NCBI GenBank assembly: GCA_035433005.1
Contig: DAORUD010000001.1
Location: 1 to 61,118 of the forward strand
From: Arenimonas sp.
GTDB taxonomy: Bacteria > Pseudomonadota > Gammaproteobacteria > Xanthomonadales > Xanthomonadaceae
Direction of reading: 5' to 3'
DNA: 61,118 nt
In this document: positions 45,968 through 59,074 of the stretch, in pieces
Layout of the letters: each line of letters opens with the position of its first letter
Numbering within the stretch: position 1 is the first letter of the stretch
Program-made: the position numbers and the translations under genes
Notes under the pieces: generated by a model
The model's input: only the letters and a program-made list of their open reading frames with translations
Told to the model about the DNA's origin: nothing
Database searches by the model: none

Positions 45968-46645
45968 TCAGCCCAGCGGCACGTCGAGCGGCTGGGCGCC
46001 GTCGAGCATGAAGCGCGCATTGAAGGCCACGGTGATGCGCTCGCCCTCGCCCTCGAACGGCAGCACTTCGTGCAGCAGCCACGACGGGAAGATCACCAGC
46101 TGTCCCGGCTCGAGCCGCAGCGAACGCGGGCTCATCGCATAGGGCGGCTTCATGTTGGCCAGCGCCATGTCCAGGTACATCGTGGCCGAGGCCTGCGGGT
46201 TGATGAAGGTGAGCCGGCCGCTGTCGCTGGCCGGGTCGTCGCCGTCGTGCTTGACGCAGTACACGCCCGACCACGAGTGCATGGCGTGGTTGTGGGCGCC
46301 GAAAAACCCGCCGCGGCGGGTGATGTGGAACCACGACTGGTGCTGGATGTGCAGCTTCATCAGCATGGCCCGGTCGTAGCCGTTGAGCTCGCCGATGGCG
46401 CGGTACAGGTTGGCCCAGCAGAAATCGCGCAGCTTCGCGCAGGCCGGCTGCGGCCAGTCGAACAGGCGGAAGTTGCTTTCGAACAGCTGCTTGTTGCGCG
46501 AGACGATGGGCTCGGGGTTGCGGTACTTGTCGCCCTCGGCCTCGCGGGCCAGGAACAGGTCGCGCAGCTGGCGGTTCAGTTCGGCGTGGTCGTCGAGCTT
46601 GGCGTACACCAGCGGGACGGAAAAGGCGGGGGTGATCTGGAACAT
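45968..46645 (-). CDS. putative 2OG-Fe(II) oxygenase (TIGR02466-like)
   Basis: HNH..WSGVY, FPSWLLHEV, RITVAFN. Confidence 0.82.
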   Translation of the reverse strand: MFQITPAFSVPLVYAKLDDHAELNRQLRDLFLAREAEGDKYRNPEPIVSRNKQLFESNFRLFDWPQPACAKLRDFCWANLYRAIGELNGYDRAMLMKLHIQHQSWFHITRRGGFFGAHNHAMHSWSGVYCVKHDGDDPASDSGRLTFINPQASATMYLDMALANMKPPYAMSPRSLRLEPGQLVIFPSWLLHEVLPFEGEGERITVAFNARFMLDGAQPLDVPLG

Positions 46646-50368: not shown

Positions 50369-50419
50369 CGTACCAGGTACATTTTCAGTCTCATTGAGAC
50401 TGAAAATGTACCTGGTACG
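50369..50419. repeat. REP/MITE-like palindromic element P3
   Basis: 25-bp perfect arms CGTACCAGGTACATTTTCAGTCTCA around a single T; AT-rich; between convergent genes. Confidence 0.9.
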
Positions 50420-53261
50420 TCATCTCTACGTGGAGGCGGAGGCGCTCGGCGGCGGTTTCGACGTCGGCGCAGTGCGGAAGCAGCTGCGACCAGTCGCCGG
50501 ATTTCGCGGCGGCCTCCACTTCGGCCGCGGCCTCGCCCAGCTGCTGGGCGCCCACCAGGCGCGCCGCGCCCTTGATCTTGTGCGCCTGGCGCGCCACCTG
50601 CGCCAGGTCGCCGGCGGCACGGGCCGACTGCAGGCCCTGCAGGTCGGCCGCCGTGGCGGCCAGGAAATCGTCCATCAGCGCGCGGCATTCGCGCGGGTCG
50701 CCGCCGGTGAGCGTGTCGAGCACCGACGCGTCCAGCGCCAGCGGCTCGGTGCGCACCTGCGGCAGCGGCGCGCTGGCCACCATGTCGCCCGCCAGCGGCA
50801 CCGTGTGCGGCAGCCAGCGGCGCAGGCAGGCCACCAGTTCGGGAATGCTGACCGGCTTGGACAGGTAGTCGTCCATGCCCGCGGCCAGGCAGCGCTCGGC
50901 TTCGCCCTTCAGCGCGGCGGCGGTGAGCGCGATCACCGGCGTGCGCGCCTGGCCGCTGCGCGCTTCCTCGGTGCGCAGCGCGCGCGCCATTTCATAGCCG
51001 TCCATCTCGGGCATGTGCACGTCCGACAGCACCAGGGCATAGCGTCCGGTGCGCCACGCCTCGAGCCCCTTCACGCCGTCTTCGGCCGATTCGCTGGCGT
51101 AGCCGGCCAGCGCCAGCTGCCGCGCCACCACCAGCCGGTTGGTCGGATGGTCGTCCACGATCAGCACCAGGCTGCGTTCGGCCAGCGCCTGCGCCACCGA
51201 CGGCAGCGGCCGCGCCAGGAAGCCCTGGCCGGGCTCGGCGGGTGATTCGGGCTCGAGGTTTTCCACCTCGCCGCGCGGCACCACCAGGGTCAGCCGCAGC
51301 GTGGTGCCGGCGCCCGGCGTGCTGTCCATTTCCACGGTGCCGCCCATCAGTTCGGCCAGCCGGCGCGAAATCACCAGGCCCAGCCCGGTACCGCCGAAGC
51401 GCCGGGTGGTGCTGCCCTCGGCCTGCTGGAAGGGCTGGAACAGCCGCGCTTGCTGTTCGGGCGTGACGCCGATGCCGGTGTCGGTGATGCGGAAGCACAC
51501 GCGGTCGCCGTCGCCGTCGCGGCCGCGCCACTCCAGCGCCGCCTCCACCATGCCCGCCTCGGTGAACTTGATGGCGTTGGACAGGAAGTTGCCCAGCACC
51601 TGCCGCAGCCGCAGGCCGTCGGCCACGTGCGCGGGGCCGATGCGGTCGTCCACGCTGCAGGTCAGCACCAGGCCCTTGCTGGACGCCGAGCCGGTGAAGT
51701 TGGCCACCGTGGACTGCAGCAGCCGGGGCAGCGAGATGGTGCTGGGCGACAGCTCCAGCCGCCCGGCCTCCACCTTCGAGAAATCCAGGATGTCGCCGAT
51801 GATCTGCAGCAGCGACCGCGCCGACTGCTGGATCACCTGCACGGTGCGGCGCTGGTCGTCGTCGAGCTGGCTGTGCGACAGCACTTCGAGCATGCCGGTG
51901 ACGCCGATCATGGGCGTGCGTATTTCGTGGCTCATCGCGGCCACGAAGCTGGACTTGGCCTCGCTGGCCTCGCGGGCGCGCGTTTCGCTCTTGCGCAGGC
52001 GCTGCTCCAGCTGCTTGATCTGGGTGAGGTCGGTGCCCACCGCCAGGTAGCCCACCGTCTTGCCGCTGCCGTCGCGCATGGCCGACGTGGCCAGCAGCAC
52101 CGGCACCTGGCTGCCGTCCTTGCGCACGAAGTTCCACTCCAGCGGCGGCGAACCCTGCTCGATCAGCACCGGGATAAGGCGCGCGTCGGCCGGCACGCGC
52201 TCGTCGCGGGCCGCGGTAAGGTCGGCGGCCAGCCGCTCCACCTCGTCCTGCACCATCAGGCGCTCCATGCTGCGCTTGCCGATCATGTCCTCGGCGCGGT
52301 AGCCGGTAAGCCGTTCGGCGTGCGGGTTGAAGCTGGTGAAGCGGCCGTCGAGGTCAATGGACATGATGGCCACCCGCGCCGCCGCGAACAGCGAGCGCTG
52401 GAACACCTCGCGCTCGTGCAGCGCCTCGCGCACCTGTTCGTTCCGGTACAGCTGCTGGTTGAGCTCGGCCTCGAACTTGCGCACGTCGTCGCGCATCACC
52501 AGGAACGCGTCCAGCACTTCGCCCAGTTCGCCGCTGGGCCGGAACCGCGGCACCGCCTGGTAGTCGTGCCGGCGCATCTGCTGCGCCAGCGAGGTCAGGC
52601 CCTCGACGCCCTTGTAGATGTTGCGCACCAGCTTCTGCCCCACCAGGCCCACCACCACCAGGGTCACCAGGCTGAGCAGCGTGCGAATCCAGGCCGCGCG
52701 CTGCGCACGCTGCTCCTGCTCGCGGACCTGGGCTTCGGCCTCGATCATCTCGAGGTCGCTCAGGTGCTTCATGCGGATGGTCACCGGATCGATGGCCGGG
52801 TACAGCTCGGTGTCGGCGAACCGGGCCAGGGCGACGATGTCGCGCTGCGCCAGCACGCCGCGCAGCGTCTGCGCGGCGGTGTCGGCGCGGATGCGGGCGC
52901 GCGCTATCTGCTCGTACAGCGTGCGCTGCTGCCGCGTCTTGGGCATGGCCTCGAGCGCCGACCAGTGCTCGCGGATGCGCAGGCGCGCGTTGTCCACCAC
53001 CTGTTCGCCCTCCTCCCAGGCAATCAGTCCGTTGCGGACCCGGAAGGTGGTGTCCACGATGTCCAGGCCATAGGCGTCCGACACCGCCTTGATGCGGCGC
53101 AGGCCGGCGAGGGATTCGTCCTTGAGCTGCACCAGGGCCTGCTGGCTGCGCTGGCGCTCGTACTCGTCCAGCGCCAGCACCGCCGCCCCGGTGAACATCA
53201 GCAGGCCGAACAGGCCCAGCAGCTGCAGCCGGATGCCGAACTTGGGCCCGGGGCGCGGCAT
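50391..53261 (-). CDS. hybrid sensor kinase (periplasmic sensor-HAMP-PAS-HisKA-HATPase-REC-Hpt)
   Basis: MSHEIRTPM, GGTGLGL, LIVDDHP, SDVHMP, AHKIKGAA. Confidence 0.93.
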   Translation of the reverse strand: MPRPGPKFGIRLQLLGLFGLLMFTGAAVLALDEYERQRSQQALVQLKDESLAGLRRIKAVSDAYGLDIVDTTFRVRNGLIAWEEGEQVVDNARLRIREHWSALEAMPKTRQQRTLYEQIARARIRADTAAQTLRGVLAQRDIVALARFADTELYPAIDPVTIRMKHLSDLEMIEAEAQVREQEQRAQRAAWIRTLLSLVTLVVVGLVGQKLVRNIYKGVEGLTSLAQQMRRHDYQAVPRFRPSGELGEVLDAFLVMRDDVRKFEAELNQQLYRNEQVREALHEREVFQRSLFAAARVAIMSIDLDGRFTSFNPHAERLTGYRAEDMIGKRSMERLMVQDEVERLAADLTAARDERVPADARLIPVLIEQGSPPLEWNFVRKDGSQVPVLLATSAMRDGSGKTVGYLAVGTDLTQIKQLEQRLRKSETRAREASEAKSSFVAAMSHEIRTPMIGVTGMLEVLSHSQLDDDQRRTVQVIQQSARSLLQIIGDILDFSKVEAGRLELSPSTISLPRLLQSTVANFTGSASSKGLVLTCSVDDRIGPAHVADGLRLRQVLGNFLSNAIKFTEAGMVEAALEWRGRDGDGDRVCFRITDTGIGVTPEQQARLFQPFQQAEGSTTRRFGGTGLGLVISRRLAELMGGTVEMDSTPGAGTTLRLTLVVPRGEVENLEPESPAEPGQGFLARPLPSVAQALAERSLVLIVDDHPTNRLVVARQLALAGYASESAEDGVKGLEAWRTGRYALVLSDVHMPEMDGYEMARALRTEEARSGQARTPVIALTAAALKGEAERCLAAGMDDYLSKPVSIPELVACLRRWLPHTVPLAGDMVASAPLPQVRTEPLALDASVLDTLTGGDPRECRALMDDFLAATAADLQGLQSARAAGDLAQVARQAHKIKGAARLVGAQQLGEAAAEVEAAAKSGDWSQLLPHCADVETAAERLRLHVEMTYQVHFQSQ

Positions 53262-53268
53262 GGCCGGC

Positions 53269-54474
53269 CTAGTGGTGGGTCTGGCGCCAGCGCAGGATCG
53301 CGTCGGGTAGCTGTTCGCCCGGCACCGCCGGCGAGATCAGATAGCCCTGGGCGTAGTCGCAGCCCAGGCCCGCCAGCAGCTGCCACTCCTCCACCGTTTC
53401 CACGCCCTCGGCCACCACCCGCAGCTCGAGCTTGCGGGCCAGGTCGAGGCTGGTTTCGATCATGGCGCGCTTGCGCGGCTGGGTGGGCGCGCCGCTGACG
53501 AAGCCGCGGTCGATCTTCAGCGCCGAGAACGGGATTTGCGACAGCTGCGACAGCGACGAATAGCCGGTGCCGAAATCGTCCACGCTCAGGCCGAAGCCCT
53601 TCAGGCGCAGGCGCGCCAGCATGCCCAGGCCGCGCGCGGTGTCGCTCATCACCGAGCTTTCGGTGATTTCCAGCACCACCTGTTCGGGCGACAGGCCGTG
53701 TTCGCGCAGCACCGCCTCGTAGCGGTCGGCCACTTCGGGGCCGGTGAGGTTTTGCGCCGACACGTTGACCGAGATCTTCAGGTCCAGGCCGCGCGCCTGC
53801 CAGCGCTTCCACCACGCGCAGGACTCCACCAGCATCAGGTTGGTGAGTTCGTCTATCAGGCCGCCGGCCTCCATCATCGGCACGAACACCGCCGGCGGCA
53901 CCATGCGCCCGTCGGGCAGGCGCCAGCGGGCCAGCGCCTCGACGCCGACGATCTTGCCGTTGCCGAACTCGGCCTGCGGCTGGAACCAGGGGTGGACTTC
54001 GCCGCGGGCCAGCGCGTCGCGCGCCTGGTCGAGGGTGACGTCAACGTCCAGCACCGCCGCGCCCGCACCCACTTCGGTTTCGTACACCGACAGCACCGTG
54101 GTGAGCTTGCCCGGCGTGAGCGGCTTTTCGACGCAGCCCAGCACGCGCAGGCCCGACGCCTTGGCCATCACCTGCACGGTGTGCAGCAGCGCCGGCTCCA
54201 TCGCGCTGACCACGGCGATGGAGTGGGCCAGCCGCTCCTGGGCGACGATGCCGATGAACTCGATGCCGTCCATGCCGGGCATGTCCAGGTCCACCAGCAC
54301 CACGTCGGGCGGCTCGGGCATGGCGCGCAGCAGGTCCAGCGCCTGGAAGCCGTCGGAGGCCTCGTGCAGCTTGGTCAGTCCGAGGTCGGAAAGCAGCCGA
54401 AGGCCCAGGCGGCGCTGGAAGCCGTGGTCTTCGACCAGAAGGATGCAAAGCCCCGCCAAACCCATGCCCGCCAT
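53269..54474 (-). CDS. REC-EAL c-di-GMP phosphodiesterase response regulator
   Basis: LLVEDH, DLDMP; EALARW, LEITES, DDFGTGYSS, AEGVE, QGY. Confidence 0.93.
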   Translation of the reverse strand: MAGMGLAGLCILLVEDHGFQRRLGLRLLSDLGLTKLHEASDGFQALDLLRAMPEPPDVVLVDLDMPGMDGIEFIGIVAQERLAHSIAVVSAMEPALLHTVQVMAKASGLRVLGCVEKPLTPGKLTTVLSVYETEVGAGAAVLDVDVTLDQARDALARGEVHPWFQPQAEFGNGKIVGVEALARWRLPDGRMVPPAVFVPMMEAGGLIDELTNLMLVESCAWWKRWQARGLDLKISVNVSAQNLTGPEVADRYEAVLREHGLSPEQVVLEITESSVMSDTARGLGMLARLRLKGFGLSVDDFGTGYSSLSQLSQIPFSALKIDRGFVSGAPTQPRKRAMIETSLDLARKLELRVVAEGVETVEEWQLLAGLGCDYAQGYLISPAVPGEQLPDAILRWRQTHH

Positions 54475-54808
54475 CCCGGTTGTGTTCGCGCTTCGAGTCT
54501 AACCCGCGTTTCGTTCAGCTTGGAAGTTGCCCCGCGGTGCAGCGGCGGGCTCTCCGGACAACGTCGCGACCGCGGTGATCCGGCCGCGCCGGGGGCGCCC
54601 CGGCGCCGACCCGCGTGAAGACCGCCGGGTCGAAACTGTGCTGCAGCGCACATTGCTATCGCCGCGAACCATACGCTAGCGTCCGGCCTGCGGTGGCACG
54701 GGGGACGCACGGCATGCCGGGGCGTCGCCACTGCAGATCAGGTTCGTCGCTTCATGTCGGACGCCGGCGCGGGTCCATGGCGTACACCAAATCCAAGGGG
54801 AGAGAACG

Positions 54809-55897
54809 ATGAAGACTCGACACCGCAGCAATGCGGGCCGGTGGCTGCCGGCTGTGGCACTGTTGGCGATGGCCGGCCCGGCCGTGGCGAACACGCTCAA
54901 CCAGAACGTTTCGTGGACCATCGACCGGTCCGGCACCACCACCAAGTACCGCGTGGTGGCCTACGGCGATTCCATCTACGCCGGCTACAACGGCTCGGTC
55001 AGCAACGCCGCCAAGTACTCCGCGCCCACCGTGGACGCCGAATACCTGGCCGCGCGCTGGGGCGCCGACATCGAGAGCATCCGCCGCACCAAGTCCGGCG
55101 CCGTGGCCAAGGACGTGTACGACAACAAGATCGTCGCCGAACGGTCCTACATGCAGGCCGCCTCCACCCGCGTGGTCACCTTCGAGATGTGCGGCAACGA
55201 CGGCCTGCAGGCCCGCACCGCCTTCAAGGGCCAGACCGGCACCTGCAACTACGCCGTGCTCGACAACGCCGTGAACTCCTGCCGCACCTACGTGGCCGCG
55301 GGCATGGACTTCATCAACGCCAACGCGCACCCGAACACCCGGCTCAAGGTGATCGCCAACCTGTACTACCCCGGCTACAACGCCGACAACGTGCAGAGCT
55401 CGTGCCGCGACGCCACCACGGGCCAGACGGTGAACCTGCGCGACCGCTTCCTGCCGGCGATTGCCAGGATGAACTGGAGCATGTGCAACTCGGCCCGCCT
55501 CAAGGGCTTCCAGTGCGCCGACAGCTTCGCCCAGTACATGGGCGCGGACTACGACAGCAACGGCGACGGCCAGGTGGACTCGGACGCGCTGCGCTACGTG
55601 GCCGGTGAAACTGAAGCCGCCTACCTCGCCCGCATCACCGGCGCGCTGCGCCCGACCCTGCGCGATGCCAACACGCACTTCGCCACGGCCTCGAGCAGCT
55701 TCGACTACATCCAGTCCGACGACGTCCACCCGACCTACACCGGCGGCACCGTGTCGGCCGGCCTGTGGGGTGGCACCACCGGCACCGGCGCCGCGCGCTA
55801 CACCAGCTTCACCGGCGGCAAGAGCCCGATCTGGAACAGCTTCGGCCACGAGCGCATGGGCTGGTCGCTGTCGGTCTACAACCCGGCGGCTCCGTAA
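54809..55897 (+). CDS. secreted SGNH/GDSL hydrolase
   Basis: Sec signal; block I YGDSI, block II SGA, block III CGND, block V DDVHP; Ca-loop-like DSNGDGQVD. Confidence 0.85.
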   Translation: MKTRHRSNAGRWLPAVALLAMAGPAVANTLNQNVSWTIDRSGTTTKYRVVAYGDSIYAGYNGSVSNAAKYSAPTVDAEYLAARWGADIESIRRTKSGAVAKDVYDNKIVAERSYMQAASTRVVTFEMCGNDGLQARTAFKGQTGTCNYAVLDNAVNSCRTYVAAGMDFINANAHPNTRLKVIANLYYPGYNADNVQSSCRDATTGQTVNLRDRFLPAIARMNWSMCNSARLKGFQCADSFAQYMGADYDSNGDGQVDSDALRYVAGETEAAYLARITGALRPTLRDANTHFATASSSFDYIQSDDVHPTYTGGTVSAGLWGGTTGTGAARYTSFTGGKSPIWNSFGHERMGWSLSVYNPAAP

Positions 55898-55924
55898 ACC
55901 TGCGTCGGCACGAAGGACTCCAAC

Positions 55925-56590
55925 GTGGTTGAACAAAGTCCCCCGCCCCCTGCGCCGTCCGGTCCGGACGGCGACGGTGTGCGGGTGATTTCCAAGGCGC
56001 GGACCCCGCACGGGTCCGCGCTTTCCTGGGCGCTGGCCCTGGTGCTGGTGCTGGGCGCCGTGGTGGCATGGCGCCTGCTGGCGCCCGCCGCTCCCGATCG
56101 CCGGGACCTCCAGGCCTCCGTACCCACGCCCGCTGCGCCGCAGGACGCCCGCGCCCCGGCGCGCCGCGCGACCGCGACCGCCAGCGCGCCGCACGAACCC
56201 GCCGAGGCCCTGCCCAACGGCGACCCCAACGACCTGGCCAACTACTTCCGGCCCGGCGACCCCGAACCCACCGGCGCCGAACTGATCGGCGCCCTGAACG
56301 ACGTCGGCATCCGCACCGGCATCGGCGCCTTCAATCCGCCGGGCACCAGCCCGCCGCTGGAGGGCCTGGCCGTGCCGGAGGACTACGAACTTCCCGAAGG
56401 TTATGTGCGCCACTACCAGTCCACCGACGAGGGCGTGGCGATTGAACCGATCCTGATGTTCGCGCCCGACTTCACCCTGCTCGACGCCAGCGGCCGACCC
56501 GTCGCCCTGCCCGGCAACCGCGTGGTGCCGCCCGGGATGGCGCCGCCGGGGCTGCCGATCCGGCGCGTCCGGATACCGCCGCCGACCTGA
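55925..56590 (+). CDS. membrane-anchored Pro-rich protein of unknown function
   Basis: AAGGA RBS + GTG; one N-terminal TM, Pro/Ala linker, compact C-terminal domain. Confidence 0.78.
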   Translation: MVEQSPPPPAPSGPDGDGVRVISKARTPHGSALSWALALVLVLGAVVAWRLLAPAAPDRRDLQASVPTPAAPQDARAPARRATATASAPHEPAEALPNGDPNDLANYFRPGDPEPTGAELIGALNDVGIRTGIGAFNPPGTSPPLEGLAVPEDYELPEGYVRHYQSTDEGVAIEPILMFAPDFTLLDASGRPVALPGNRVVPPGMAPPGLPIRRVRIPPPT

Positions 56591-56620
56591 CCGCGCTTTA
56601 CGGAGTTTGCTTACTTGACC

Positions 56621-59074
56621 ATGGATCGGTTGCCGCTTTCCCGCTGGCGCCTGTTGGCCGGCGTCCTTGCCACGGCCCTGTTGATTGGCGTGTACGCGCG
56701 CGGCGGCGCCGCGTGGGGCCTGGGCGCCGTGATGCTGGTGCCCTGGCTGCTGGCGCTGGACGCCACGCGCACGCGGGCCGGCACGCTGGCCAGCGCGCTG
56801 CTGATGTGCGCGGCGATGGTGGCGGCCACGTTCTACTGGTTCGGCGCGGCCATCGGCGGCTTCACCGGCATGGGCGCCGTGCCGGGCGTGGCCGTGCTGC
56901 TGGTGCTGGCGCCCGTGATGCAGCCGCAGGTGCTGGCGTTCGCGCTGGTGCGGCACCTGGCCGGCCGCCGGCACGGCGCGGTGATGCGCGCGCTGGCGGG
57001 CGCCAGCGCCTGGGTGGCCTGCGAGTGGGCCCTGCCCAAGCTGCTGGGCGACACGCTGGGCCACGGGCTGTTTCCGTCGGCGCTGATGCGCCAGGCCGCC
57101 GACCTGGGCGGCGCGGCGGGCCTGACCTTCCTGCTGATACTGGTGAACGAAGGCATCGCGCAGGCCGTGGCCCGACGCAGGCGCGGTGTGCGCGCCACGC
57201 TGGCACCGCTGGCCGGGGCCGCGGCCATCGTGCTGGCGCTGGCCGGCTACGGCATGGCGCGCCTGGCCGCGCTGCATGCGCCCCCCGCGCCGGCGCCGGC
57301 GCTGCGCGTGGCGATGGTGCAAGCCAGCATCACCGACTACGAAGGCCTGCGCCAGCAGATAGGCGCCTACGGCGTGGTGCGAAAAGTGCTCGACACGCAC
57401 TACGCGCTTTCGCAGTCGGCCGTGCGCGACCACGGCGCCGACGTGCTGCTGTGGTCGGAAACCGTGTACCCCACCACCTTCGGCCAGGCCCGCAGCGAAG
57501 ACGGCGCCGCGCTCGACGCCGAGATCCAGGGCTTCGTCGAGGCCATGGGCGTGCCGCTGGTGTTCGGCACCTACGACATCGACGGCGCGGGGGAATACAA
57601 CGCCGCCGCCTTCGTCGAACCGCGCGCGGGGCTGATTGGCTTCTATCGCAAGACCCATCCTTTCCCGTTCACCGAACACGTGCCGGCCTGGCTGGATGGC
57701 CCGACGCTGCGCCGCCTGCTGCCGTGGACCGGCGGCTGGCAGCCCGGCTCCGGCGCGCGCGTGCTGCCGCTGCGCACCGCCGACGGCCGCGAGGTGAACG
57801 TGCTGCCGCTGATTTGCCTGGACGACGTGCACACGGGGCTGGCCATCGACGGCGCGCGGCTGGGCGCGCAGGCCATCGTCGGCATGTCGAACGATTCGTG
57901 GTTCACCGACTATCCCGCCGGCGCGCGGCTGCACCTGGCGGTGGCGGCGTTCCGCAGCATCGAGACGCGGCTGCCGCAGGTGCGCGTCACCACCAATGGC
58001 CTGAGCGCGGTGATAGATGACACCGGCGAAGTGCTGGCCAGCACCGGCATGGGCGACCAGGCCGTGCTGACCGCCGAGCTGTCGGCGCGCGATCCCGCGC
58101 CCACGCTGATGGTGCGCTGGGGCGACTGGGTGGGGCGCGCGGGCGCGGGGTTCCTGCTGGGGCTGGTGGCGCTGGCCGCCTGGCGTGCACTGCGGCATCG
58201 CCCGGTGGCGAACGCCTCGGGCCCGTTCGTCGCCAAGGCGGCGCTGCTGGGCCGGGGCGCGCGATGGGCCGCCGGCCTGCTTCGCCTGGTTTCAGCGGCG
58301 GGGCTGGCCTGGCTCGCGCTGGACATGCTGCTGCGCGTCGGCCTGCAGGTGCAGTCGCTGGCGCAGCTCAAGCTGTTTGCCTTCGCGGTGGTGTTGCCCG
58401 CCGTGGCCGCCTGGGCCATCACGCGCGCGGCCGCGGCCACGCTGCGCATCGAAGGCGATGCGCTGGTGCTGGACCAGCGCCACCAGCGCACCGAGATCCC
58501 GCTGGCGTCCATCGCGGCAGTGCAGCCCTGGCGCCTGCCGCTGCCGCATGCGGGCGTGGACCTGCGGCTGGCGTCAGGGCAGGCATGGCCTCGCGGGTTG
58601 GTGGGCGTTGACGCGATGGCGCTTCAGCGGGCGCTGGGCAGCGCCGGCTCGCCCGCTTCCATCCACGGCGGCATGGCCGGGCGCCTGGCGCGCTGGGCAC
58701 AGCTGCGCGCGGCCACGGTGCATCCGCGGCTGGACTCTGCGCTGGTGAAGTTCGCGCTGTTCCCGATGCTGCCCGCGGCGATCGCGTTCCGGCTGCACCA
58801 GGTGATCGCCTTCGGCGGTCCGCTGGGCGAGTACTACACGTATGGCCTCAAGGCCTGGCTGACCGGTGCGGCCATCTGGTGGGCGTCGTGGTCGATCGGG
58901 CTGATGCTGTTTGCCGCGGCGCTGCGCCTGGCCATCGAAGCCACCACGCTGATGGCATTCGCCCTGTCGGCCGCGCGGGCGCTGGCCGTGCGCGATGCGC
59001 TGGAGTGGCTGGGCCGTGCGGCGTTCTACCTTGGTGTGCCGGCCTGGCTGGCGCTGCGGCTGCTCTCGGGTTGA
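56621..59074 (+). CDS. apolipoprotein N-acyltransferase-like protein with long C-terminal membrane/bPH-like extension
   Basis: TM N-terminus; nitrilase triad WSET / YRKT / ICLDD; SNDSWF, RSIETR, GLSAVID; about 290 extra aa. Confidence 0.85.
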   Translation: MDRLPLSRWRLLAGVLATALLIGVYARGGAAWGLGAVMLVPWLLALDATRTRAGTLASALLMCAAMVAATFYWFGAAIGGFTGMGAVPGVAVLLVLAPVMQPQVLAFALVRHLAGRRHGAVMRALAGASAWVACEWALPKLLGDTLGHGLFPSALMRQAADLGGAAGLTFLLILVNEGIAQAVARRRRGVRATLAPLAGAAAIVLALAGYGMARLAALHAPPAPAPALRVAMVQASITDYEGLRQQIGAYGVVRKVLDTHYALSQSAVRDHGADVLLWSETVYPTTFGQARSEDGAALDAEIQGFVEAMGVPLVFGTYDIDGAGEYNAAAFVEPRAGLIGFYRKTHPFPFTEHVPAWLDGPTLRRLLPWTGGWQPGSGARVLPLRTADGREVNVLPLICLDDVHTGLAIDGARLGAQAIVGMSNDSWFTDYPAGARLHLAVAAFRSIETRLPQVRVTTNGLSAVIDDTGEVLASTGMGDQAVLTAELSARDPAPTLMVRWGDWVGRAGAGFLLGLVALAAWRALRHRPVANASGPFVAKAALLGRGARWAAGLLRLVSAAGLAWLALDMLLRVGLQVQSLAQLKLFAFAVVLPAVAAWAITRAAAATLRIEGDALVLDQRHQRTEIPLASIAAVQPWRLPLPHAGVDLRLASGQAWPRGLVGVDAMALQRALGSAGSPASIHGGMAGRLARWAQLRAATVHPRLDSALVKFALFPMLPAAIAFRLHQVIAFGGPLGEYYTYGLKAWLTGAAIWWASWSIGLMLFAAALRLAIEATTLMAFALSAARALAVRDALEWLGRAAFYLGVPAWLALRLLSG

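Follow-up and report, generated by a model that had tools for sequence, protein, structure and literature searches.

A conserved four-part cassette that joins an Lnt paralogue to an exported SGNH esterase in Arenimonas and its relatives

What does an apolipoprotein N-acyltransferase (Lnt) acylate when its gene is encoded in one run with that of a secreted esterase without a lipobox? The question is raised by the window, the whole 61,118-nt stretch of Arenimonas sp. DNA that was analysed (contig DAORUD010000001.1 of assembly GCA_035433005.1), which is contig C1 of a source genome, G000, of 2.6 Mb and 87% completeness. On the plus strand of the window, the esterase gene (open reading frame 1, ORF1; 54809–55897, 362 aa), ORF2 (55925–56590, 221 aa, GTG start) and ORF3 (56621–59074, 817 aa; Lnt plus an extension) follow each other, separated by 27 and then 30 nt. 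The trio had been described in an initial annotation as a specialised acyl-transfer module, and the ORFs, gaps and motifs given there were all recovered when the window was re-read. The cassette is real and conserved, and is an undescribed variant use of Lnt; no literature on it was found, with most subscription journals and supplements outside the search.

A Conserved Four-Part Cassette

In the species-genome collection, an esterase relative is present in 540 of 576 candidate stretches, of which the best 80 were kept; a metagenome scan with the stand-alone form of the fourth module (see below) gave 409 relatives, of which 80 were kept, yielding 160 loci together. Among the best 80 of the 540, ORF2 is present in all 77 loci with at least 800 nt downstream of the esterase, and Lnt in all 61 loci with at least 3.9 kb downstream. 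The trio, whose conservation across taxa the initial annotation had left to be checked, is complete in every one of these 80 genome loci that has room for it.

The genes are conserved together, as proposed, but the parts number four rather than three. The C-terminal part of ORF3 (58181–59074, plus strand; ~290 aa) consists of a transmembrane (TM) pair, a PH-like stretch (~58442–58615) and three more TMs, and carries a conserved HQxxxxGGxxGEYY loop (58787–58837). In other lineages, the module is a stand-alone gene of 270–300 aa that adjoins the esterase, ORF2 and an Lnt of 500–550 aa. Stand-alone module proteins of 271–287 aa were obtained from the Atlas and are commonest in Myxococcota, one being named Anaeromyxobacter. 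Because Myxococcota-type loci encode the extension on its own and still next to the other three genes, the cassette is taken to have four parts. ORF3 residues 520–817 match no Pfam or NCBIfam family, and 14 module members match no Pfam family. The sequence on which the extension had been called bPH-like is present at residues 608–633, but structural support for bPH is sub-threshold: the Atlas aligns residues 534–684 to the bPH_10, bPH_4 and bPH_6 cluster models with TM-scores of 0.38–0.52 (by target), none of which reaches its bar. ORF2 shows no homology to the fourth module.

All four parts are near full length in 86 of the 160 loci, and in each of the 86 the Lnt gene comes directly after ORF2. 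The fused order of the window is found in 72 of these; in 11, Lnt–ORF2 lie on one strand, followed by the module and a converging esterase, and in the other 3 the module converges on esterase–Lnt–ORF2. Esterases of split loci cluster with those of Myxococcus fulvus, other Myxococcus, Hyalangium and Candidatus Limnocylindrales (taxon names were available for three of nine looked up). No fifth conserved gene was found, the commonest next family being present in 23 of the 160 loci; the neighbour families include shadow frames, and ORFs were pre-filtered by GC content at third codon positions. In loci L219 and L221, no ORFs passed the GC filter. Relative to locus L034, synonymous and non-synonymous changes number 50:18 in the esterase, 20:14 in the ORF2 domain, 86:87 in the Lnt core and 68:97 in the extension, such that synonymous changes outnumber or about equal non-synonymous changes in the first three and are fewer in the extension. 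The distance matrices of the three proteins are similar (Spearman 0.79–0.86); as a sign of contact this was rejected, since shared descent accounts for the likeness.

The cassette is patchy in its distribution. The closest loci are those of Arenimonas or Lysobacteraceae, and carriers also include Lysobacter, Tahibacter, Massilia, Rubrivivax, Myxococcus fulvus and Hyalangium. In an even draw of 151 near-complete Lysobacterales genomes, the esterase is present in 18 and a cassette-type Lnt in the same 18. Of 401 genomes of the phylum, 4 contain the esterase. Among 7,998 candidates scored in the protein database, 2,905 are esterase clusters; plasmid and phage collections gave no esterase homologue. 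Sixteen of the 18 carriers have long Lnt forms. In genome G083 (L218:5645-8211) the Lnt gene is split into two frames, and the esterase and ORF2 are whole. In genome G167 (L217:4473-8578) a 609-aa esterase with a PKD-like domain (E 1.4e-5, just below the cut-off) and a long tail is accompanied by the module on the same strand and by a converging Lnt, inside which the contig ends; the G167 assembly gave no ORF2 match.

The Lnt Paralogue and the Housekeeping Lnt

The core of the Lnt paralogue (ORF3 residues 1–520 of 817; 56621–58180, plus strand) consists of LNT_N and nitrilase domains. ORF3 scores 196.6 bits against TIGR00546 (cut-off 132.9), and both PF20154 (LNT_N) and PF00795 (CN_hydrolase) are above their cut-offs. 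E280 (57458), K344 (57650) and C399 (57815) align with E267, K335 and C387 of E. coli Lnt, and E352 with E343. The membrane and nitrilase domains, the E-K-C triad, the second Glu and the SNDxWF motif are common to the paralogue and E. coli Lnt (PDB 5N6H, 5VRG, 5XHQ and 6NWR; phmmer E 5e-11 to 5VRG), and the triad motifs are kept in all 127 cassette copies. In contrast, E. coli W237, Y388 and E389 correspond in the alignment to Q245, L400 and D401, and the GFPW motif is also replaced; C[YF]E and G[FY]P[WL] each occur in 2 of the 127 copies, and 6 of 126 have a Trp close to where W237 aligns. W237 is required only at the second step, the transfer to lipoprotein (PMC6971011). Judged from these alignments, the Lnt copy is one that keeps the donor-side chemistry and has altered acceptor-side residues.

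The cassette Lnt has its own set of invariant residues. In a quick tree of 41 rows, the 39 cassette rows are set apart by a long, fully supported branch from the canonical rows, which number just two because a filter missed seven of the nine intended ones; fused and split forms each fall on one side, with support of 83 and 74. Further differences from the E. coli enzyme are the 290-aa membrane module fused to or flanking the core, the patchy occurrence and the tie to the esterase and ORF2. Second Lnt copies that cannot replace the main enzyme are described in actinobacteria (Streptomyces scabies Lnt2 and M. bovis BCG_2279c), as is a fusion of Lnt with another domain, Lnt-Ppm1 (PMC3850990). Unlike BCG_2279c, in which Ser replaces the catalytic Cys, the cassette Lnt keeps this Cys in all 127 copies; its fusion partner differs from that of Lnt-Ppm1, and neither an esterase nor ORF2 is described for these actinobacterial proteins in that paper.

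The system is very probably an accessory acyl-transfer cassette and not the housekeeping Lnt. The initial annotation had reckoned with a separate housekeeping lnt and had named two signs against a specialised module: a sole lnt that complements normally, or three genes not conserved together. The cassette Lnt is indeed the sole lnt over the cut-off in G000, which is half of the first sign, but the trio is conserved together, and a separate canonical lnt is present in carriers elsewhere: all five Burkholderiales carriers have one in addition, which scores higher, and among 41 relatives, of which 26 have no lnt over the cut-off, genome G012 has both a canonical and a cassette copy. Moreover, being the sole lnt is not a valid test in Lysobacterales, because at E 1e-20 an Lnt is missing from 120 of the 151 near-complete genomes. 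The part of the initial annotation that stands is thus the specialised module with a non-housekeeping Lnt, which is supported by the linkage, the patchy distribution and the separate canonical lnt in other carriers. X. campestris B100 has been reported to be without lnt (PMC10368991), and in a review Lnt is described as produced by almost all Gracilicutes (PMC11784454). In G000, a single lolC/E-family gene is followed by lolD (C64:1638-3582, L265); this LolDF layout goes with tolerance of lnt loss and diacyl lipoproteins (PMC11784454; PMC8689077).

A second, weaker Lnt-like family of ~480–510 aa (LNT_N plus CN_hydrolase, under the lnt cut-off) was seen at L220:4704-6230 (genome G151) and in 12 further genomes; the L220 gene adjoins a TetR-like gene (by eye), without an esterase. 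These 13 weaker genes and a 515-aa Lnt of genome G075 were left out of the Lnt classes.

Promoter and PhaR-Type Operator

A predicted sigma-70-type promoter (54653–54682, plus strand; −35 TTGCTA at 54653–54658, −10 TAGCGT at 54677–54682) precedes the esterase gene, and a putative PhaR-type operator (54638–54654, plus strand; core TGYTGCRNYGC at 54639–54649) abuts its −35. The −35/−10 pair at this spacing is kept in most aligned upstream regions, along with the box. The core is found in 62 of 77 cassette promoters compared with 1% of shuffles, at 37–38, 49–52, 57–60, 71 or 77 nt before the −10. As the core pattern was drawn from these same upstream regions, it was tested independently on phasin promoters: it lies before 29 of 30 Lysobacterales PF09361 phasin genes (30 loci from 39 matches), in none of 30 downstream controls and in 2.4% of shuffles. 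A 17-bp palindrome with the consensus ATGTTGCRNYGCAACAT precedes 29 of these 30 phasin genes (L230–L259) in one or two copies and is likely to be the PhaR operator of Lysobacterales. A matrix built from phasin promoters alone passes 66 of 73 Lysobacterales-type cassette promoters. The cassette box matches the PhaR consensus of PMC6201568 at 11 of 12 positions, and published PhaR sites fit it (PMC6201568; PMC12542648). A phaR gene is present in G000 and in all 13 carriers among the 41 relatives (30 of the 41 overall). PhaR likely controls the cassette in Lysobacterales.

Several observations weigh against PhaR control as a general or straightforward feature. The phasin-only matrix passes just 1 of 6 Burkholderiales promoters and none of 16 split loci, so that the box is missing outside Lysobacterales; the box of the window is weak (at 7.7 bits it ranks 62nd among 59,939 G000 candidates, many of the top matches lying inside ORFs); no box was found before phaR or the PF05597 phasin in G000, the latter being the wrong phasin class to serve as a control for PhaR; and neither a PF09361 phasin nor a polyhydroxyalkanoate (PHA) synthase was found in this genome. 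Within the genus, 20 of 24 other Arenimonas genomes have phaR and 1 of 24 has a detectable PHA synthase. PhaR regulons reach far past polyhydroxybutyrate (PHB) (PMC6201568; PMC12542648), and PhaR may sense another storage lipid in the source genus. Given the missing PHA synthase and the absence of the box outside Lysobacterales, the operator likely reflects a link to carbon-storage control and not PHB as the substrate. A cluster of a patatin, the PF05597 phasin and a PRK07201 short-chain dehydrogenase/reductase was also seen in G000; the loci behind these remarks on phaR and the cluster are C33:5630-5950 and C35:13206-18558 (L263). Strong PhaR-type boxes in this genome (C29:10392, C91:2152, C56:11980 and C65:3233) lie close to glnE (by eye), a DUF1302 gene, a secreted S8 protease gene and an unnamed hydrolase-like gene; those before the DUF1302 and S8 protease genes rank 2 and 10.

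Clp was considered as the regulator and rejected in favour of PhaR: the box matches the Clp site ATGC-N6-GCAT at 6 of 8 positions (PMC6182147), but TGC-N6-GCA is present in just 43 of the 77 cassette promoters (15.5% of shuffles), and the Clp motif has been given as TGTGA-N6-TCACA (10.64898/2026.02.02.703240). No riboswitch or known RNA upstream of the cassette was found in Rfam. A putative G-rich hairpin (54690–54735) lies just after the predicted transcription start, recurs in many of the ~120–130-nt leaders and has no Rfam match. The genes on the other side of the promoter (50391–54474, minus strand) encode a hybrid PAS histidine kinase and a receiver-EAL protein resembling PvrR; they diverge from the cassette, with which they have the upstream region in common. 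The box is 167 nt from the start of the EAL gene, which is linked in just 14 of the 160 loci.

Candidate Acceptors of the Acyl Group

The esterase is predicted to be cleaved by signal peptidase I after A27, which places the start of the mature protein at 54890. ORF1 scores above the PF00657 cut-off (Pfam), and the SGNH blocks I (GDS, S55), II (G97), III (GxND, here GND with N130) and V (DxxH, D304/H307), together with the fold matches below, place it in the SGNH family. Six cysteines (128, 146, 158, 199, 226 and 236) and an EF-hand-like DxDxNxDGxxD loop (residues 247–257; 55547–55579) are present; the loop described in the initial annotation is thus found, and calcium binding is suggested by its motif. 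Among 123 full-length homologues, GDS, the block II Gly and CGND are each kept in 123, DxxH in 117 and the loop in 115, and the Cys count is 6 or 7 in all. The absence of a lipobox from both upstream proteins, as first reported, holds among homologues: none is found at the cleavage site of the esterases, one lipobox-like string in the 123 signal regions lying within the hydrophobic stretch, and just 1 of 117 ORF2 homologues has one. The predicted cut follows the pattern A-x-[AGS] and leaves a variable first residue (Ser, Asn or Thr). Close behind it, T29, Q32, N33, S35, W36 and T37, which lie within the 20 residues preceding the catalytic core, are each conserved at 97% or more of the 123 homologues.

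The esterase is the most conserved part of the cassette (mean identity 76%, compared with 59% and 58% for the other two proteins). No PDB sequence matches it below E 0.01, and its model is mediocre (pLDDT 60.7), with mature residues 7–10 forming a strand in this poor model. The top Foldseek matches to the model (pLDDT 61) are the Streptomyces phospholipase A1 4HYQ and the lipase 5MAL (E ~2e-6); VIA-align ranks 7e16 best (Z 13.7, rmsd 3.4, 187 residues aligned), with Z 12.3 for both 5MAL and 1ESC. Peptidoglycan O-acetyl enzymes are also among the neighbours (Z 9.2–10.4), and lipases, acetylesterases and acyltransferases all fall within 3 Z units. The Streptomyces enzymes (4HYQ; S. rimosus 5MAL; S. 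scabies 1ESC) share with the esterase the SGNH fold, export and richness in Cys; the esterase differs in its ~20% identity to them, the EF-hand-like loop, the N-terminal segment and its place in a cassette.

ORF2 has a single hydrophobic segment (residues ~28–58) and a Pro/Ala linker. Its C-terminal domain of 125 aa is conserved, is predicted to be periplasmic and contains an invariant RHxQ; a DG[VI] motif precedes the TM in 91 of 117 homologues. No Pfam family was found for ORF2 (E up to 0.1) or for 41 members of the domain (E up to 1). The Lif foldases of Pseudomonas and Burkholderia (LipB/LipH), to which ORF2 had been likened, are larger and helical. The likeness stands for topology and layout: an N-terminal TM, a Pro/Ala linker, a periplasmic domain and, in the fused order, a position directly after a secreted lipolytic gene. 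It does not extend to sequence, as neither ORF2 nor the 41 domain members match Lipase_chap; in addition, the ORF2 domain is mostly strands (one helix and three strands, model pLDDT 79.9), and in split loci ORF2 stays with Lnt and not with the esterase. Fold searches with this model gave nothing, Foldseek having no match at E 0.001 and the best Z being 3.0; this neither makes the fold new nor excludes membership of a family. When the Lnt core, mature esterase and ORF2 domain were predicted as a complex, ORF2 had a median score of 0.71, compared with 0.00 for unrelated partners; because a control in which Lnt was replaced scored 0.73, the prediction is evidence neither for nor against the complex, and the scores suggest modelling of ORF2 and the esterase as two chains only.

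As no fifth family belongs to the cassette, the acceptor should be its own product or a ubiquitous envelope molecule. The reading that we favour, tentatively, is that the acceptor is the N-terminus of the esterase itself, such that the three membrane parts N-acylate an exported esterase that has no lipobox. In a first step like that of Lnt, C399 of the paralogue would take up a fatty acid from a membrane phospholipid; the acyl group would then go to the free N-terminus left on the esterase by signal peptidase I. ORF2 would keep the esterase at the inner membrane next to the transferase, and the fourth module would help in the membrane with docking or release. The product would be a lipid-anchored esterase made without lipobox, Lgt or LspA, whose targets may be lipid esters on the cell surface or farther out, and its expression in Lysobacterales would track the carbon-storage state via PhaR. 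The wider proposal, that this is a lipobox-independent lipoprotein route of Gram-negatives in which a re-tooled Lnt and two membrane partners acylate the signal-peptidase-I N-terminus (Ser/Asn/Thr) of one dedicated enzyme, under PhaR control and in an order otherwise without Lnt, is a possibility that we hold with greater doubt.

The esterase behaves as a product and not as a subunit: it is the first gene after the promoter in the fused order, has its own transcription, separate from Lnt or from the module, in split orders, is duplicated in tandem beside a single ORF2, Lnt and module in L115 (6709-9129), and carries the PKD-like domain in G167. It is favoured as the acceptor because of this separate transcription, the duplication, the PKD-like variant, the conserved N-terminal segment and the role that the reading gives to each part. 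Against it, the N-terminal segment may be merely structural, and in G167 the motif sits two residues further from the predicted cut. The fourth module occurs without the other genes nearby in at least three loci, L136:3534-4409, L155:4363-5229 and L164:2127-2999, and L177 has the esterase and the module with no Lnt or ORF2 within 12.6 kb. The passages of literature consulted gave no example of an Lnt-family enzyme that acts on anything but a lipoprotein. Lastly, the changed acceptor-side residues do not exclude ordinary substrates, because mycobacterial Lnt acylates lipoproteins although it keeps just five of the seven residues that the E. coli enzyme needs (PMC3850990). The flanks of L155 match those of L124, and the esterase, Lnt and ORF2 are missing from L155.

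Nearly as likely as acylation of the esterase is an acyl relay or editing by two enzymes, in which a fatty acid that Lnt draws from phospholipid is carried by ORF2 or the module loop, and the SGNH enzyme transfers it to, or trims an ester from, an envelope lipid, lipopolysaccharide, peptidoglycan or a lipoprotein anchor. Such a relay would fit the strict four-part linkage, the functional look of the invariant polar residues in ORF2 (RHxQ) and the HQ...GE loop, the peptidoglycan O-acetyl enzymes among the fold neighbours, and the greater conservation of the esterase, which is expected with a fixed small substrate. PatA/PatB, AlgI/AlgJ/AlgX, DltB/DltX/DltD and OatA are relays of a membrane acyltransferase and an SGNH enzyme, with a small anchored partner encoded together; the first three supply the model for the relay proposed here. 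The cassette is not one of these: they use MBOAT or AT3 enzymes and a cytoplasmic donor, whereas its membrane enzyme is a nitrilase-fold Lnt with a periplasmic phospholipid donor, and neither polysaccharide nor lipid-synthesis genes nor those for polymer synthesis are linked to it in the 160 loci. The frequent separate transcription of the esterase and its occasional duplication or PKD fusion also speak against a relay, as do the top fold matches, which are secreted lipolytic enzymes (though from a model of pLDDT 61). These same matches, headed by Streptomyces phospholipase A1, would suit an esterase secreted as a phospholipase or lipase for predation or scavenging, with ORF2, laid out as a tethered chaperone, serving as its periplasmic inhibitor or chaperone, and Lnt and the module repairing or protecting the producer membrane. 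Carriers such as Lysobacter, Tahibacter, Myxococcus fulvus and Hyalangium, and the strong PhaR-type boxes before the DUF1302 and S8 protease genes of G000, agree with this idea, but it is unlikely. An Lnt-type transacylase is a poor repair enzyme because each acylation leaves one lyso-lipid (mechanism in PMC8689077); non-predatory Arenimonas, Massilia and Rubrivivax are carriers too; and the high conservation would be unlike that of an arms-race weapon, which also agrees poorly with the lack of a homologue in the plasmid and phage collections.

Still less probable is a conditional but otherwise ordinary lipoprotein N-acyltransferase that would make triacyl lipoproteins in a diacyl lineage, or lyso-form lipoproteins if the esterase removes an O-acyl chain. 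The score above the TIGR00546 cut-off, the status as the only Lnt of G000, the LolDF layout and the activity of mycobacterial Lnt with fewer essential residues are in keeping with such a role, for which the strict linkage to three other genes would be needless; the canonical lnt kept by all five Burkholderiales carriers and by G012, and the long branch of the quick tree with its two canonical rows, also stand against it. The operator shared with phasin genes and the presence of phaR in every carrier examined, even if it is common among the relatives overall, would be explained if the cassette handled PHB or its oligomers outside the cytoplasm, by depolymerization or hydroxybutyrate transfer. 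This is very improbable, as no PHA synthase was found in G000 and one was found in a single other genome of the genus, the box is missing from Myxococcota-type and most Burkholderiales loci, and PhaR regulons are not confined to PHB.

Beyond the cassette, a gene for a 2-oxoglutarate-Fe(II) oxygenase (PF13640; 59098–60030, minus strand) converges on ORF3, and a second oxygenase-like gene (by eye; 45968–46645, minus strand) lies 8 kb upstream of the cassette. Contigs from three RNA libraries overlap the cassette: X4 covers parts of each of the three genes with short 99%-like pieces, X7 has one 986-nt piece over the esterase, and X12 extends over the flanks too. Neither transcription nor its strand or level can be read from such contigs, which were not used as evidence.

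Lnt is a drug target and is regarded as a lipoprotein-only enzyme. That a widespread paralogue has kept the chemistry, differs at the acceptor site and is tied to three partners suggests that the Lnt fold has a second use, which would be either to lipidate a secreted protein in a new way or to form a new relay for acylation of the envelope. The annotation "apolipoprotein N-acyltransferase" hides both the nature of the paralogue and the absence of Lnt from most Lysobacterales. Carriers include the culturable and tractable Lysobacter enzymogenes, L. antibioticus and Myxococcus fulvus, and the PhaR-type box hints at how the cassette could be switched on.

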